In this document: positions 6,902 through 43,005 of the stretch, piece after piece
How the letters are laid out: every line of letters starts with the position of its first letter
Position numbering within the stretch: position 1 is the stretch's first letter
Assembly: GCF_016026235.1 (NCBI RefSeq)
Contig: NZ_CP065613.1
Reading direction: 5' to 3' (one strand)
Source: Escherichia coli
GTDB taxonomy: Bacteria > Pseudomonadota > Gammaproteobacteria > Enterobacterales > Enterobacteriaceae
Length of the DNA stretch: 64,000 nt
Program-made: the position numbers and the translations under genes
Notes under the pieces: model-generated
Seen by the model: the letters and a program-made list of their open reading frames with translations, nothing else
Databases searched by the model: none
Told to the model about the DNA's origin: nothing

Positions 6902-6985
6902 GTAGGCCAGCTAAGGCGTTCACGCCGCATCTGGCATTTTGCTCTCAATGCCTGATGCGACGCTGGCGCGTCTTATCAGGCCTAC
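6902..6985. repeat. REP/BIME palindromic units (two, opposite orientation)
   Basis: gcctgatgcgacgctggcgcgtcttatcaggcctac and a degenerate inverse copy between convergent gsk and ybaL. Confidence 0.85.
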
Positions 6986-12659: not shown

Positions 12660-12743
12660 ACACCGTCGCTTAAAGTGACGGCATAATAATAAAAAAATGA
12701 AATTCCTCTTTGACGGGCCAATAGCGATATTGGCCATTTTTTT
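12660..12743 (+). ncRNA. chiX: ChiX (MicM/SroB) Hfq-dependent small RNA
   Basis: Sequence acaccgtcgcttaaagtgacggcataataat...gggccaatagcgatattggccattttttt matches my recollection of ChiX; TTGGCA-17bp-GACAAT promoter at 12625-12653; terminal hairpin plus T-run overlapping the ybaP stop. Confidence 0.8.
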
Positions 12744-14037: not shown

Positions 14038-14275
<238 letters not shown>

Positions 14276-28300: not shown

Positions 28301-28603
<303 letters not shown>

Positions 28604-29012: not shown

Positions 29013-29135
29013 TTGAATATGTAGGCATCCTGACTTATAATTCACTTGCTAGATGAGGACTGTTTCATTTCTGCCCGGAACCACCAAGTCTTGGGCGGAA
29101 AAAATAAAAAAACCGACTGTCATGTCGGTTTTTTT
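29013..29135 (+). ncRNA. Candidate small RNA: TTGAAT-17bp-TATAAT promoter (29013-29041), predicted start near 29048, terminator hairpin plus T7 at 29111-29135
   Basis: Near-consensus sigma-70 promoter and intrinsic terminator bracket about 88 nt with no ORF; the 5' end carries a 16-nt core (tgctagatgaggactg, 29047-29062) identical to 28861-28876 in the presumed leader of the toxin-like ORF. Confidence 0.35.
29109..29135. terminator. Bidirectional A-tract/hairpin/T-tract terminator (also terminates selU); direct-repeat copy B
   Basis: aaaaaaaccgac-tgtcat-gtcggttttttt; 63 nt downstream of the selU stop on the minus strand. Confidence 0.65.
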
Positions 29136-29198
29136 ATATCTGTATTCTGGTGCAACCATTCTGTTCTCACGACAATCGCCGTTTCAGAATACCGCCCA

Positions 29199-31288: not shown

Positions 31289-31395
31289 CTTCAGGTATCC
31301 CCTTTTAAATCCGCAAGTTGCGTGATTTTCTTATCCTCTGATTTATCAGTATTTTTACATGATAACCCTGTTCAATTTGTGGACTAAATCTAGTT

Positions 31396-31412
31396 TTGGA
31401 AAAATATTCCAA
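31396..31412. promoter_or_regulatory. AllR-type operator TTGGAAAAATATTCCAA in the allS-allA intergenic region
   Basis: Imperfect palindrome with TTGGAA/TTCCAA arms, the same core as the site upstream of gcl. Confidence 0.65.
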
Positions 31413-32077: not shown

Positions 32078-32893
32078 ATGACGGAAGTTAGACGGCGCGG
32101 CAGGCCAGGACAGGCGGAGCCTGTGGCACAGAAGGGCGCACAGGCATTAGAGCGGGGAATTGCGATTCTGCAATATCTGGAAAAAAGTGGGGGAAGTTCG
32201 TCGGTTAGCGATATTTCTCTCAATCTGGATTTGCCGCTCTCCACGACCTTTCGCTTGCTGAAGGTTTTACAGGCAGCGGATTTTGTCTATCAGGACAGTC
32301 AGTTAGGCTGGTGGCATATAGGATTAGGTGTCTTTAACGTCGGTGCAGCGTACATCCATAACCGCGATGTCCTCTCCGTCGCCGGGCCGTTTATGCGCCG
32401 CCTGATGTTACTTTCCGGCGAAACGGTCAATGTCGCGATCCGTAACGGCAATGAAGCGGTATTAATTGGTCAGTTAGAGTGTAAATCGATGGTCAGGATG
32501 TGTGCTCCACTGGGCAGTCGTCTGCCACTGCATGCTTCCGGTGCGGGCAAAGCGCTGCTTTATCCGCTGGCGGAAGAGGAGTTGATGAGCATCATTCTGC
32601 AAACCGGTTTGCAGCAGTTTACGCCAACTACGCTTGTGGATATGCCCACTCTGCTGAAGGACCTGGAACAAGCGCGTGAACTGGGCTATACCGTAGATAA
32701 AGAAGAGCATGTTGTAGGTCTGAATTGCATAGCTTCAGCAATTTACGATGATGTAGGTAGCGTTGTTGCCGCTATCTCCATCTCCGGGCCTTCATCAAGA
32801 CTGACAGAAGATCGTTTTGTCAGTCAGGGTGAGCTGGTCAGAGACACCGCCCGCGATATCAGCACGGCGTTGGGACTGAAAGCACATCCATAG
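32078..32893 (+). CDS. allR: IclR-family repressor of the allantoin regulon
   Basis: 271-aa ORF with IclR-type HTH and effector domain. Confidence 0.93.
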
Positions 32894-32945
32894 TGTCTGT
32901 CGCATCCCGCTCTGCGGAGCGGGTTTTTTTGACAAAATTTGAAAG

Positions 32946-32962
32946 TTGGAAAATTTTTCCAA
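32946..32962. promoter_or_regulatory. AllR-type operator TTGGAAAATTTTTCCAA upstream of gcl
   Basis: Perfect 8-1-8 palindrome 21 bp upstream of the gcl ATG. Confidence 0.7.
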
Positions 32963-32982: not shown

Positions 32983-34764
32983 ATGGCAAAAATGAGAGCC
33001 GTTGACGCGGCAATGTATGTGCTGGAGAAAGAAGGTATCACCACCGCCTTCGGCGTTCCGGGAGCTGCAATCAATCCGTTCTACTCAGCGATGCGTAAGC
33101 ACGGCGGTATTCGTCACATTCTGGCGCGTCATGTGGAAGGTGCTTCGCACATGGCGGAAGGTTATACCCGCGCAACGGCAGGGAATATCGGCGTATGTCT
33201 GGGGACTTCCGGTCCTGCGGGCACGGACATGATCACCGCGCTCTATTCCGCTTCTGCTGATTCCATTCCTATTCTGTGCATTACCGGCCAGGCACCGCGC
33301 GCCCGTCTGCATAAAGAAGATTTTCAGGCTGTTGATATTGAAGCAATTGCTAAACCGGTCAGCAAAATGGCGATTACAGTACGTGAAGCGGCGCTGGTGC
33401 CTCGCGTGCTGCAACAGGCATTTCACCTGATGCGTTCTGGTCGTCCGGGTCCGGTACTGGTGGATTTACCGTTCGACGTTCAGGTTGCGGAAATCGAGTT
33501 TGATCCTGATATGTACGAACCGCTGCCGGTCTACAAACCTGCTGCCAGCCGTATGCAGATCGAAAAAGCTGTAGAAATGTTAATCCAGGCCAAACGTCCG
33601 GTGATTGTTGCCGGGGGCGGGGTAATTAATGCTGACGCAGCTGCACTGTTACAACAGTTTGCTGAACTGACCAGCGTTCCGGTGATCCCAACGCTGATGG
33701 GCTGGGGCTGTATCCCGGACGATCATGAACTGATGGCCGGGATGGTGGGTCTGCAAACCGCGCATCGTTACGGTAACGCAACGTTGCTGGCGTCCGACAT
33801 GGTGTTTGGTATCGGTAACCGTTTTGCTAACCGTCATACCGGTTCGGTAGAGAAATACACCGAAGGGCGCAAAATCGTTCATATCGATATTGAGCCGACG
33901 CAAATTGGTCGCGTGCTGTGTCCGGATCTCGGCATTGTCTCTGATGCTAAAGCGGCGCTGACACTGCTGGTTGAAGTGGCGCAGGAGATGCAAAAAGCGG
34001 GTCGTCTGCCGTGTCGTAAAGAATGGGTCGCCGACTGCCAGCAGCGTAAACGCACTTTGCTGCGCAAAACCCACTTCGACAACGTGCCGGTGAAACCGCA
34101 GCGCGTGTATGAAGAGATGAACAAAGCCTTTGGTCGCGATGTTTGTTATGTCACCACCATTGGTCTGTCACAAATCGCTGCGGCACAAATGCTGCATGTC
34201 TTTAAAGACCGCCACTGGATCAACTGTGGTCAGGCTGGTCCGTTAGGCTGGACGATTCCGGCTGCGCTAGGGGTTTGTGCCGCTGATCCGAAACGCAATG
34301 TGGTGGCGATTTCTGGCGACTTTGACTTCCAGTTCCTGATTGAAGAGTTAGCTGTTGGCGCGCAGTTCAACATTCCGTACATCCATGTGCTGGTCAACAA
34401 CGCTTATCTGGGGCTGATTCGCCAGTCGCAGCGCGCGTTTGATATGGACTACTGCGTGCAACTCGCTTTCGAGAATATCAACTCCAGCGAAGTGAACGGT
34501 TACGGCGTCGACCACGTAAAAGTAGCGGAAGGTTTAGGTTGTAAAGCGATTCGCGTCTTCAAACCGGAAGATATTGCGCCAGCCTTTGAACAGGCGAAAG
34601 CCTTAATGGCGCAATATCGGGTACCGGTAGTCGTGGAAGTTATTCTCGAGCGTGTGACCAATATTTCGATGGGCAGCGAACTGGATAACGTCATGGAATT
34701 TGAAGATATCGCCGATAACGCAGCGGACGCACCGACTGAAACCTGCTTCATGCACTATGAATAA
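32983..34764 (+). CDS. gcl: Glyoxylate carboligase (ThDP-dependent)
   Basis: 593-aa ORF from MAKMRAV; ThDP-enzyme fold; track start at 32893 is an upstream extension. Confidence 0.95.
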
Positions 34765-34776
34765 GGGAGATAAATA

Positions 34777-35553
34777 ATGTTACGTTTCTCTGCTAATTTA
34801 TCGATGTTATTTGGAGAATATGATTTTCTCGCCCGTTTTGAGAAAGCTGCGCAGTGTGGTTTTCGCGGCGTTGAATTTATGTTTCCTTATGACTACGACA
34901 TTGAAGAATTAAAACAGGTGCTGGCGAGTAATAAACTCGAACATACGCTGCACAATTTACCGGCGGGTGACTGGGCGGCGGGGGAGCGCGGTATTGCCTG
35001 TATTCCTGGCCGTGAAGAAGAGTTTCGGGATGGCGTAGCAGCAGCGATTCGTTATGCCCGTGCGCTGGGTAATAAAAAAATTAACTGTCTGGTCGGTAAA
35101 ACGCCGGCTGGTTTCAGCAGTGAACAGATTCACGCAACGCTTGTAGAAAACCTGCGTTATGCCGCGAATATGCTGATGAAAGAAGATATTTTATTACTGA
35201 TTGAACCTATTAACCATTTTGATATTCCTGGTTTCCATCTCACCGGAACTCGGCAGGCGCTGAAATTGATTGATGATGTTGGTTGCTGCAATTTGAAAAT
35301 TCAGTATGACATTTATCACATGCAGCGGATGGAAGGTGAATTAACCAACACCATGACTCAGTGGGCTGATAAAATTGGTCACCTGCAAATTGCCGATAAT
35401 CCGCATCGCGGCGAACCGGGAACCGGAGAAATTAATTATGATTATCTCTTTAAGGTAATCGAAAATTCTGACTACAACGGTTGGGTTGGGTGTGAATATA
35501 AACCCCAAACCACCACGGAAGCCGGTTTACGCTGGATGGATCCGTACCGTTAA
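34777..35553 (+). CDS. hyi: Hydroxypyruvate isomerase
   Basis: 258-aa ORF (xylose-isomerase-like TIM barrel). Confidence 0.93.
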   Translation: MLRFSANLSMLFGEYDFLARFEKAAQCGFRGVEFMFPYDYDIEELKQVLASNKLEHTLHNLPAGDWAAGERGIACIPGREEEFRDGVAAAIRYARALGNKKINCLVGKTPAGFSSEQIHATLVENLRYAANMLMKEDILLLIEPINHFDIPGFHLTGTRQALKLIDDVGCCNLKIQYDIYHMQRMEGELTNTMTQWADKIGHLQIADNPHRGEPGTGEINYDYLFKVIENSDYNGWVGCEYKPQTTTEAGLRWMDPYR

Positions 35554-35652
35554 AACGTAACGCTATTCAGACAATGCTTTTTTAGGCCGCTAAGTTGGCA
35601 GGGGATCGTGTTGTCTGAATTCAGGAAAAGCGAAATTTAAAAGAGGTTAATT

Positions 35653-36531
35653 ATGAAACTGGGATTTATTGGCTTAGGCATTATGGGTACACCGATGGCC
35701 ATTAATCTGGCGCGTGCCGGTCATCAATTACATGTCACGACCATTGGACCGGTTGCTGATGAATTACTGTCACTGGGTGCCGTCAGTGTTGAAACTGCTC
35801 GCCAGGTAACGGAAGCATCGGACATCATTTTTATTATGGTGCCGGACACACCTCAGGTTGAAGAAGTTCTGTTCGGTGAAAATGGTTGTACCAAAGCCTC
35901 GCTGAAGGGCAAAACCATTGTTGATATGAGCTCCATTTCCCCGATTGAAACTAAGCGTTTCGCTCGTCAGGTGAATGAACTGGGCGGCGATTATCTCGAT
36001 GCGCCAGTCTCCGGCGGTGAAATCGGTGCGCGTGAAGGGACGTTGTCGATTATGGTTGGCGGTGATGAAGCGGTATTTGAACGTGTTAAACCGCTGTTTG
36101 AACTGCTCGGTAAAAATATCACCCTCGTGGGCGGTAACGGCGATGGTCAAACCTGCAAAGTGGCAAATCAGATTATTGTGGCGCTCAATATTGAAGCGGT
36201 TTCTGAAGCCCTGCTATTTGCTTCAAAAGCCGGTGCAGACCCGGTACGTGTGCGCCAGGCGCTGATGGGCGGCTTTGCTTCCTCACGTATTCTGGAAGTT
36301 CACGGTGAGCGCATGATTAAACGCACCTTTAATCCAGGTTTCAAAATTGCGCTGCACCAGAAAGATCTCAACCTGGCACTGCAAAGTGCGAAAGCACTTG
36401 CGCTGAATCTGCCAAACACCGCGACCTGCCAGGAGTTATTTAATACCTGTGCGGCAAACGGTGGCAGCCAGTTGGATCACTCTGCGTTAGTGCAGGCGCT
36501 GGAATTAATGGCGAATCATAAACTGGCCTGA
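35653..36531 (+). CDS. glxR: Tartronate semialdehyde reductase
   Basis: 292-aa ORF with N-terminal GxGxxG (3-hydroxyisobutyrate dehydrogenase family). Confidence 0.93.
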   Translation: MKLGFIGLGIMGTPMAINLARAGHQLHVTTIGPVADELLSLGAVSVETARQVTEASDIIFIMVPDTPQVEEVLFGENGCTKASLKGKTIVDMSSISPIETKRFARQVNELGGDYLDAPVSGGEIGAREGTLSIMVGGDEAVFERVKPLFELLGKNITLVGGNGDGQTCKVANQIIVALNIEAVSEALLFASKAGADPVRVRQALMGGFASSRILEVHGERMIKRTFNPGFKIALHQKDLNLALQSAKALALNLPNTATCQELFNTCAANGGSQLDHSALVQALELMANHKLA

Positions 36532-36699
36532 TACCCGCAATAAAAATGGCCGATATCAGAATATGAATCGGCCAGCAATATTAAAAAAGAAAGCAGCCAA
36601 AGATGTTGCTTCAGTATTAAAAATAATATTTTTATTTTATTTGTTCCTCATAGCTAGATTAAAACAACGTTATTCGATACGTGAAATTAAGAGGGATTT

Positions 36700-38154
36700 A
36701 TGGAACATCAGAGAAAACTATTCCAGCAACGCGGCTATAGCGAAGATCTATTGCCGAAAACGCAAAGCCAGCGGACCTGGAAAACATTTAACTATTTTAC
36801 CTTATGGATGGGTTCGGTTCATAACGTTCCCAATTATGTGATGGTCGGCGGCTTTTTTATTCTCGGCTTGTCTACCTTTAGTATTATGCTGGCAATTATC
36901 CTCAGCGCCTTTTTCATTGCCGCGGTAATGGTATTAAACGGCGCTGCGGGCAGTAAATACGGCGTACCGTTTGCCATGATCCTGCGTGCTTCTTACGGCG
37001 TACGTGGCGCACTGTTTCCCGGATTATTAAGAGGCGGTATTGCTGCCATTATGTGGTTTGGCCTGCAATGTTACGCGGGGTCACTGGCCTGCTTGATTCT
37101 GATTGGCAAAATCTGGCCGGGATTTTTAACTCTCGGTGGTGATTTCACGCTGTTAGGGCTTTCTCTACCGGGCTTAATTACTTTCTTACTCTTCTGGCTG
37201 GTCAACGTTGGTATAGGTTTTGGCGGTGGCAAAGTTTTAAATAAATTCACTGCCATTCTTAACCCGTGCATCTATATCGTTTTCGGCGGTATGGCGATTT
37301 GGGCGATTTCGCTGGTCGGGCTCGGTCCAATCTTTGACTACATTCCGAGCGGTATTCAGAAAGCAGAAAACAGTGGCTTCCTGTTCCTGGTGGTGATAAA
37401 CGCGGTAGTTGCGGTCTGGGCGGCACCGGCGGTGAGCGCATCCGACTTTACGCAAAACGCCCACTCGTTTCGTGAGCAAGCGCTGGGGCAAACGCTGGGT
37501 TTAGTTGTGGCCTATATTCTGTTTGCGGTCGCGGGGGTATGTATTATTGCCGGAGCCAGTATTCATTACGGCGCTGATACCTGGAACGTGCTGGATATTG
37601 TTCAGCGTTGGGACAGCTTGTTCGCCTCGTTCTTTGCGGTACTGGTTATTCTGATGACGACTATCTCCACTAACGCCACCGGTAATATTATTCCTGCCGG
37701 TTATCAGATTGCCGCTATTGCACCGACGAAACTGACTTATAAAAACGGCGTACTGATTGCCAGTATTATCAGCCTGCTGATCTGCCCGTGGAAATTAATG
37801 GAAAATCAGGACAGTATTTATCTGTTCCTCGATATTATCGGCGGAATGCTTGGTCCGGTAATTGGTGTCATGATGGCGCATTATTTTGTGGTGATGCGTG
37901 GGAAAATTAATCTTGATGAACTGTATACCGCACCTGGCGATTATAAATATTACGATAACGGTTTTAACCTCACTGCGTTTTCAGTAACTCTGGTGGCCGT
38001 TATTTTATCTCTTGGCGGTAAGTTTATTCCCTTTATGGAACCGTTATCGCGTGTTTCATGGTTTGTCGGCGTCATCGTCGCCTTTGCGGCCTACGCCTTA
38101 TTAAAGAAACGTACAACAGCAGAAAAAACAGGAGAGCAAAAAACCATAGGTTAA
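36700..38154 (+). CDS. ybbW: NCS1-family putative allantoin permease
   Basis: 484-aa polytopic ORF within the allantoin cluster. Confidence 0.9.
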   Translation: MEHQRKLFQQRGYSEDLLPKTQSQRTWKTFNYFTLWMGSVHNVPNYVMVGGFFILGLSTFSIMLAIILSAFFIAAVMVLNGAAGSKYGVPFAMILRASYGVRGALFPGLLRGGIAAIMWFGLQCYAGSLACLILIGKIWPGFLTLGGDFTLLGLSLPGLITFLLFWLVNVGIGFGGGKVLNKFTAILNPCIYIVFGGMAIWAISLVGLGPIFDYIPSGIQKAENSGFLFLVVINAVVAVWAAPAVSASDFTQNAHSFREQALGQTLGLVVAYILFAVAGVCIIAGASIHYGADTWNVLDIVQRWDSLFASFFAVLVILMTTISTNATGNIIPAGYQIAAIAPTKLTYKNGVLIASIISLLICPWKLMENQDSIYLFLDIIGGMLGPVIGVMMAHYFVVMRGKINLDELYTAPGDYKYYDNGFNLTAFSVTLVAVILSLGGKFIPFMEPLSRVSWFVGVIVAFAAYALLKKRTTAEKTGEQKTIG

Positions 38155-42924: not shown

Positions 42925-42933
42925 TGAATTTAC
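42925..42933. repeat. Target-site duplication TGAATTTAC (right) of the IS1 insertion
   Basis: Identical to 42148-42156. Confidence 0.9.
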
Positions 42934-42936
42934 TAC

Positions 42937-42963
42937 AAAAAAAGCCACGGTATAAACCGTGGC
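42937..42963 (-). terminator. Rho-independent terminator of allE
   Basis: On the minus strand: stem gccacgg / ccgtggc with loop, followed by 7 T (A-run at 42937-42943 on plus). Confidence 0.7.
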
Positions 42964-43005
42964 AAAATCCAACATAGCTAAAAATAATCAGGCGAGTGGT
43001 ATGAC

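Follow-up and report, generated by a model that had tools for sequence, protein, structure and literature searches.

The hyi-glxR spacer and its hairpin

The DNA analysed here, referred to as the window, is a stretch of 64,000 nucleotides that covers the allantoin/glyoxylate cluster of Escherichia coli. The genes of interest are allR (32078-32893), gcl (32983-34764), hyi (34777-35553), which encodes hydroxypyruvate isomerase, glxR (35653-36531), which encodes tartronate semialdehyde reductase, allW (36700-38154) and allB (from 38214). The coding sequences of hyi and glxR, both on the + strand, were present in the open reading frame list, and all gene names and coordinates were checked against the RefSeq annotation of a record that was identical over a 401-base query (window 35400-35800). 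The genes gcl-hyi-glxR-allW-allB-ybbY-glxK form a seven-gene, AllR-controlled transcript, and a single operon has been reported for them (PMC10163214). This operon joins glyoxylate assimilation (gcl, hyi, glxR, glxK) to allantoin uptake and hydrolysis (allW, allB).

Between the hyi stop codon, TAA (35551-35553, + strand), and the start of glxR lies a spacer of 99 nt. A first-pass annotation of the sequence had reported an inverted repeat in this spacer, and we confirmed that its 10-nt arms, ATTCAGACAA (35565-35574) and TTGTCTGAAT (35611-35620), pair without a mismatch across a 36-nt gap. Under a first-order Markov model, a 64-kb sequence should contain ~2.7 perfect inverted repeats with arms of 10 bp or more and a loop of at most 50 nt, which makes the 10-bp match by itself weak evidence. 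By the same criterion the window contains 15 inverted repeats, most of which are terminators or REP elements. What takes the hyi-glxR repeat beyond chance is its extended fold, its location in a 99-nt intercistronic spacer and its compensatory conservation across Enterobacterales. A longer perfect inverted repeat of 12 bp, GATATTGCGCCA...TGGCGCAATATC, was observed inside the gcl coding sequence (34570-34618).

RNA folding of the region, which the first-pass annotation had proposed as a check, gave a hairpin of 56 nt (35565-35620, + strand) with 21 bp and a free energy of -23.2 kcal/mol (z = -3.6). None of 200 dinucleotide shuffles folded as well. The outer helix, P1, comprises 13 bp, two of which are G.U pairs, and the enclosed segment contributes 8 further pairs. 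In P1 the 5' arm AUUCAGACAAUGC (35565-35577) is paired with the G/U-rich 3' arm GUGUUGUCUGAAU (35608-35620), and these arms include the two originally reported 10-nt arms. A 2x2 internal loop separates P1 from the inner helix, P2, which is formed by the 5' strand UUUUAGGCCG (35580-35589) and the 3' strand UGGCAGGGGA (35596-35605). P2 is itself divided by an AG/AG internal loop into P2a, in which UUUU (35580-35583) pairs with GGGA (35602-35605) through three U.G pairs and one U-A pair, and P2b, in which GCCG (35586-35589) pairs with UGGC (35596-35599). In the P2 3' strand, all 19 orthologues keep G35603 and nearly all keep G35602. The sequence of the apical loop, CUAAGU (35590-35595), varies among orthologues.

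The stem begins 11 nt past the hyi stop codon. Directly 3' of it lies the single-stranded, A-rich segment UCAGGAAAAGCGA (35621-35633, + strand), which is conserved in the E. coli/Citrobacter/Superficieibacter group and is a partial repeat of the 5' arm. The glxR Shine-Dalgarno sequence, GAGG (35643-35646, + strand), is located 22 nt past the stem and outside the hairpin, and the GAGG column is conserved in the alignment of orthologues. RNase E prefers the single-stranded motif RN|WUU (PMC5222698). A loose form of this motif is matched by GA|AUU at the base of the stem (35616-35620) and again in the post-stem segment. Further repeats were seen around the 3' side of the stem. The 3' arm is overlapped by another palindrome, CTGAATTCAG (35615-35624), which is 10 bp long and includes an EcoRI site; its counterpart in Citrobacter werkmanii extends to 12 bp, CCTGAATTCAGG. 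The post-stem sequence ATTCAGGAAAAGC (35619-35631) repeats the 5' arm in direct orientation with 77% identity. On the chromosome of strain MG1655 (NC_000913.3) the hairpin occupies 536,498-536,553, and this record has no annotated feature between hyi and glxR.

Conservation, covariation and strand

To compare the spacer between genera, orthologous loci were found via the Hyi protein. A hairpin was present at the same place in the 80-100 nt hyi-glxR spacers of Salmonella, Citrobacter (two species), Superficieibacter, Klebsiella and Izhakiella. It was likewise present in Scandinavium, Buttiauxella, an Enterobacter-like contig, Budvicia and several metagenomic relatives. The first-pass annotation had named absence from orthologous operons, along with a lack of nearby transcript ends, as grounds for dismissing the structure, and the conservation found here removes the first of these objections. 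The arms have diverged between genera yet remain complementary, as in UUCAGACAA/UUGUCUGAA of E. coli, UUCGGGCAG/UUGCCUGAA of Salmonella and UUGGGCA/UGCCCAA of both Klebsiella and Izhakiella.

Covariation was quantified on alignment A2, in which 19 distinct orthologous spacers were aligned with MAFFT on sequence only. RNAalifold recovered a 9-bp core of P1 from this alignment, and six of the nine pairs showed compensatory changes. For the full 23-pair structure, 77.1% of the cells were paired, compared to 37-50% when the 3' partner was slid by 1-3 columns. Changes on both sides were found in 12 of the 23 pairs (31 cells). The covariation score was 0.287 against 0.10-0.15 for the slid controls, and none of 500 shuffles reached the observed values. 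When the alignment was fitted to the model, 84% of the P1 cells were paired and 10 of the 13 P1 pairs had changed on both sides. The number of predicted pairs per spacer was 15-23 in 17 of the 19 sequences, and 12 in the metagenomic P66 spacer. A search of the 64-kb window with the covariance model, R1, returned this hairpin as the sole significant match (77 bits, E = 5e-16), the next having E = 1.

We compared this conservation with the neutral background. At the four-fold degenerate sites of hyi and glxR, E. coli shares only 32-47% identity with six other genera (Salmonella, Citrobacter, Superficieibacter, Klebsiella, Izhakiella and the Enterobacter-like contig), which is near saturation. 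The retained pairing is therefore not a matter of simple inheritance. The length of the hairpin is also kept: across the 19 sequences its span, taken between the conserved C-G pair, is always 47-50 nt (sd 1.0). The part of the spacer 3' of the hairpin ranges from 17 to 38 nt. The U.G wobbles opposite the GG of the P2 3' strand remain wobbles in 10-14 of the 19 sequences.

To determine which strand carries the structure, the 410 pair cells of the alignment were classified. There were 228 Watson-Crick pairs, 88 G.U pairs and 15 A.C combinations, the last being the pattern expected if the other strand were folded. The + strand folded better in 16 of the 19 sequences, with a mean of -20.9 kcal/mol versus -15.9 kcal/mol, and the reverse strand of the window hairpin gave -15.8 kcal/mol. 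Because G.U pairs outnumber A.C combinations by 88 to 15 and the + strand is the better folder in most sequences, the selected structure is a sense-strand RNA. A minus-strand or antisense RNA structure was rejected on the same two grounds. The 3' arm of P1 is 62-92% identical between E. coli and the six orthologues and the 5' arm 38-69%. The 3' arm is the more conserved because the wobble asymmetry lets the 5' arm drift by transitions without loss of pairs. Collectively, the covariation, the excess of G.U over A.C and the conserved length bear out the earlier proposal of a long stem-loop in the sense-strand mRNA; the hairpin exists on this strand and is conserved with covariation across genera.

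Beyond these genera the hairpin was not found. An R1 search of 75 hyi loci from other (non-enteric) proteobacteria gave no homologous hairpin; in these bacteria the hyi-glxR order is kept and the spacer is mostly 10-50 nt. The hyi-glxR spacer of Serratia silvae is 10 nt long and lacks the hairpin. Since Serratia silvae and most non-enterics manage with such short spacers, the hairpin is dispensable for the pathway as such. Judging from the loci compared, it is a lineage-specific addition within Enterobacterales (Enterobacteriaceae together with Izhakiella and Budvicia). Two side observations were made in these searches. The long hyi-glxR spacers of Microbulbifer, a Burkholderiales MAG, Xanthobacter, Pseudorhodoferax and Modicisalibacter contain GC-rich palindromes unrelated to the hairpin (down to -118 kcal/mol, z down to -8.6), which are probably lineage-specific REP-like elements. 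On the Budvicia locus (L012, 4251-4320), just 3' of glxR, a weak R1 match (E = 0.1) corresponds to a simple 14-bp hairpin, UCUGGCGCUGAUA...UAUUAGCGCCAGA.

Within E. coli the 99-nt spacer was found in 5344 of 5426 complete genomes, at a median of one place per genome (5346 E. coli genomes, blastn in distant mode). Six aligned E. coli sequences (the window and five loci) differ by three substitutions within hairpin base pairs, two of A-U to G-U and one of C-G to U-G, and every pair is kept as a wobble. A divergent allele, 85% identical over the spacer, occurs in the 103 genomes of the 80-90% identity band. In this allele, represented by L3Cip3, both P1 arms are unchanged and the flanks and apex differ. 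The apex is remodelled such that the structure becomes a continuous, near-perfect helix of 25 bp with -30.5 kcal/mol. Rearranged loci were also encountered. Strain EC931 has an IS5 in place of the end of gcl, hyi and the spacer, strain SF10 has an IS1 after spacer nucleotide 77 and a deletion through to fdrA, and GCA_046506745.1 has a frameshifted hyi of 268 aa that reads into the hairpin.

Alternative explanations for the hairpin

We asked whether the hairpin belongs to a known family. Rfam 15 gave no match on the hairpin at E values up to 10 in the window, none at the gathering score, and none in five orthologous loci at E values up to 1. A dispersed repeat or mobile element was rejected, as the hairpin is single-copy per genome and R1 finds one site in the window. 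Membership of the REP/BIME family was likewise rejected, given the median of one place per genome and naRNA4 matches that lie elsewhere in the window only. The hairpin resembles REP/BIME elements (Rfam naRNA4) in being a palindrome outside genes, in a spacer whose neighbouring genes are convergent or co-directional. It differs from them in being single-copy and in having no sequence similarity to them, and naRNA4 is found at five other places in the window. AllR and RutR operators were searched for with an AllR box of the TTGGAAAAnnTTTTCCAA type and the RutR box TTGACCAnnTGGTCAA, which we take to be the consensus sequences. Both were rejected, with no match in the spacer at up to 3 mismatches to these assumed consensus sequences. 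The AllR-type scan did find boxes where they are expected, before gcl and in the allS-allA region. The AllR-type palindromic operator TTGGAAAATTTTTCCAA lies just upstream of gcl, and the boxes are at 32946-32962 and, for the related one in the allS-allA region, at 31395-31412. A mini-ORF running from a GUG or UUG start in the 3' arm to near the glxR start looked suggestive in E. coli, Salmonella and Citrobacter. As a leader peptide it was rejected, the frames, starts and stops not being conserved among the 19 orthologues.

Transcript data were examined for ends near the hairpin. Published Term-seq tables (LB and M63-glucose) list no 3' end within ~200 nt (MG1655 536,3xx-536,7xx), and the operon is nearly silent there, with 12-92 reads per 800 nt in the E. 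coli Term-seq media. In Salmonella the operon has 2-10 RPKM in the TIER-seq tables of an RNase E study. Because the operon is almost silent in those conditions, published transcript-end tables neither support nor refute an end at the hairpin. A bicyclomycin-sensitive Rho termination region, labelled hyi, has been reported at MG1655 535,744 (Adams et al. 2021, PMC7815308, supplementary file 2), with a Rho score of 6.8 and p = 2e-6 at low read counts (PMC7815308). This position corresponds to window ~34811 (NC_000913.3), at the gcl/hyi junction. It does not bear on the hairpin because it lies ~750 nt upstream. A consensus scan of the spacer found no terminator-like or promoter-like site, and no internal glxR promoter was predicted on either strand between 34700 and 36700.

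Neither a transcription terminator nor a DNA operator or mobile repeat is a likely identity for the hairpin. The first-pass annotation had suggested that the stem-loop modulates read-through into glxR, and a terminator or attenuator limiting hyi to glxR read-through would fit a strong hairpin placed where a coding sequence ends, in an operon for which a Rho termination region is reported, albeit far upstream. Intrinsic terminators do have a hairpin after the stop codon, but here the stem is long and AU/GU-rich and is not followed by a U-tract in E. coli (AAUUCAGGAAAA / AAUUCAGGAAAAG comes directly after it) or in any orthologue. The terminator scan was without a match, and the hairpin sits inside an operon whose distal genes, glxR and those downstream, lack separate promoter-like sites. 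For comparison, the end of allR carries a textbook intrinsic terminator (32906-32929, GC stem and T7). The read-through proposal was thus not upheld, the lack of a nearby Term-seq end being a weak argument in view of the near-silent operon, and we regard termination or attenuation as very unlikely. Just as little speaks for an operator or cruciform acting in the DNA itself, or for a functionless, fixed relic of a mobile palindrome (REP or MITE). The element is palindromic and is overlapped by a second palindrome, CTGAATTCAG, and REP-like GC-rich palindromes occur in the long hyi-glxR spacers of other proteobacteria. However, 28% of the paired cells are G.U, which are mismatches in DNA or on the other strand, the arms covary without a fixed motif, and no AllR or RutR box is present at 3 mismatches. 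A relic is further contradicted by the single copy, by the absence of an naRNA4 match at this site and by maintenance of the structure while neutral sites have become saturated. Both the DNA-level and the relic reading therefore seem highly improbable and are largely refuted by the wobble asymmetry. Least of all would a chance palindrome without function account for the element. Perfect 10-bp repeats with short loops are expected a few times in 64 kb, but conservation with compensatory change in at least seven genera, together with the z-score of the fold, leaves this a negligible probability, and the comparative sequences refute it.

The main rival to a role in mRNA processing is a specific binding site, because the conserved wobbles and invariant G residues could be read by a protein or ligand. 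The hairpin would then be bound by an RNA-binding protein (e.g. CsrA, ProQ or one specific to the pathway) or by a small ligand, and would control glxR translation or downstream expression. Conservation beyond the need for pairing speaks for such a site, as seen in the GGAAGGG/GGCAGGGG strand with its invariant G, in the wobbles retained by at least half of the orthologues and in the conserved helix length. GGA motifs are also present in the P2 3' strand and in the post-stem sequence AUUCAGGAAAAG. Yet the GGA of P2 is in the stem rather than in a loop, the apical loop is not conserved and several genera (Klebsiella, Izhakiella and the Enterobacter-like contig) lack the post-stem GGA. The near-continuous helix, fully paired in the L3Cip3 allele, offers no obvious ligand pocket and has no Rfam match, and we consider a site of this kind unlikely. 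A dedicated regulatory RNA of the glyoxylate/allantoin regulon, in which a protein or metabolite reads the helix length, the U.G run and the invariant G, is more doubtful. If it were true, binding would set Gcl and Hyi against GlxR and the allantoin enzymes by the state of the pathway, and the hairpin would represent a new class of cis-regulatory RNA inside an operon, not a passive decay signal. A similarly low probability is given to a structural insulator or standby for glxR translation, which would keep the ribosome-binding site open or position ribosomes. In all orthologues 17-38 nt separate the hairpin from the glxR start, with an A-rich single strand following the stem, and shuffling of the 5' arm in E. 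coli lowered the predicted probability of an unpaired ribosome-binding site from 0.74 to a mean of 0.63. In five other genera, however, wild type and shuffled sequences were within 0.02 of each other, in what is a weak, purely thermodynamic test, and of the element's dimensions the spacing to the start codon varies most. Insulation of the ribosome-binding site was rejected, since no consistent effect was predicted and none was seen in five of the six genera.

A possible role in mRNA processing and stability

In our preferred interpretation, the hairpin is a post-transcriptional processing or stability element that separates the fates of the gcl-hyi and glxR-to-glxK parts of the mRNA. We put the chances of this proposal at about even. 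The hairpin would uncouple the upstream gcl-hyi segment from the downstream glxR-to-glxK segment. We infer the link to RNA decay, and with it the identity of any nuclease, from the anatomy and position of the structure.

Within the processing or stability reading, cleavage by RNase III is a possibility that we advance tentatively. A helix of ~22 bp fits into RNase III, whose preferred cleavage sites are intergenic regions inside transcripts (PMC6212723). The 21-25 stacked pairs of the hairpin would present a double-stranded target of this size. For comparison with the helix size required (~20-22 bp or more, PMC6212723), the hairpin has 21 pairs over ~25 rungs, and the L3Cip3 allele has 25 pairs. 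It also resembles RNase III processing hairpins in being irregular, ~55-60 nt long and about two turns in length (21-25 bp), with small internal loops and a position between cistrons. Intercistronic hairpins of this type include the phage T7 R1.1-type signals and rpsO-pnp. As in these hairpins, the helix length is kept while the sequence drifts; the likeness here is one of size and position, and cleavage is only proposed. Other E. coli RNase III sites of the 'intergenic within transcript' kind have been mapped by Altuvia et al. 2018 (PMC6212723).

The larger share of the processing or stability reading falls to a 3' hairpin that would block exonucleases. After cleavage or Rho-dependent termination downstream, a hairpin left at the 3' end would stop 3'-to-5' exonucleases from entering the gcl-hyi mRNA. 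The first-pass annotation had suggested stabilisation of the upstream mRNA, and this is plausible in that it fits the anatomy of the hairpin. Intercistronic stabilisers that block 3' exonucleases are known from the malE-malF REP, Rhodobacter puf and E. coli pap. Like these, the hyi-glxR hairpin is a stable, conserved stem-loop just downstream of a cistron's stop codon inside a polycistronic mRNA, and the upstream enzyme (Gcl) is plausibly needed in larger amount. A terminating ribosome is estimated to cover ~9-10 nt past the stop codon, and the stem, beginning where it does, is just outside this estimated footprint. Unlike the REP stabilisers, the hairpin is single-copy, AU/GU-rich rather than GC-rich, longer than a block needs and constrained in length. 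The conserved length and the run of U.G pairs in P2 are not needed for a plain exonuclease block, which hints at something more specific.

Full-text searches of the literature found no description of this hairpin. It is a well-supported and previously undescribed case of a familiar kind, the conserved intercistronic mRNA hairpin. It is a clean structured element supported by covariation, and biologically an ordinary kind of feature that would not surprise a specialist. Standard transcriptome maps miss it because the operon is silent in laboratory media. The gcl operon is used in metabolic engineering for glycolate, ethylene glycol and C1 assimilation. If the hairpin sets the stability of proximal versus distal mRNA, it would be a hidden determinant of enzyme ratios that could be kept, removed or transplanted.

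Other structured elements were noted in the window. The glxR-allW spacer (36532-36699, 168 nt) folds better than its shuffles (z = -2.7) and contains hairpins at ~36547-36574 and 36591-36610, followed by a long A/U-rich tract. Rfam matches above the gathering score elsewhere in the window were five naRNA4 (REP-array) copies (6905-6982, 14041-14219 and 28370-28548), sroB (12660-12743), STnc480 in the allantoin cluster region (42933-42999), AgrB (29049-29137) and ES036 (28324-28366, - strand).
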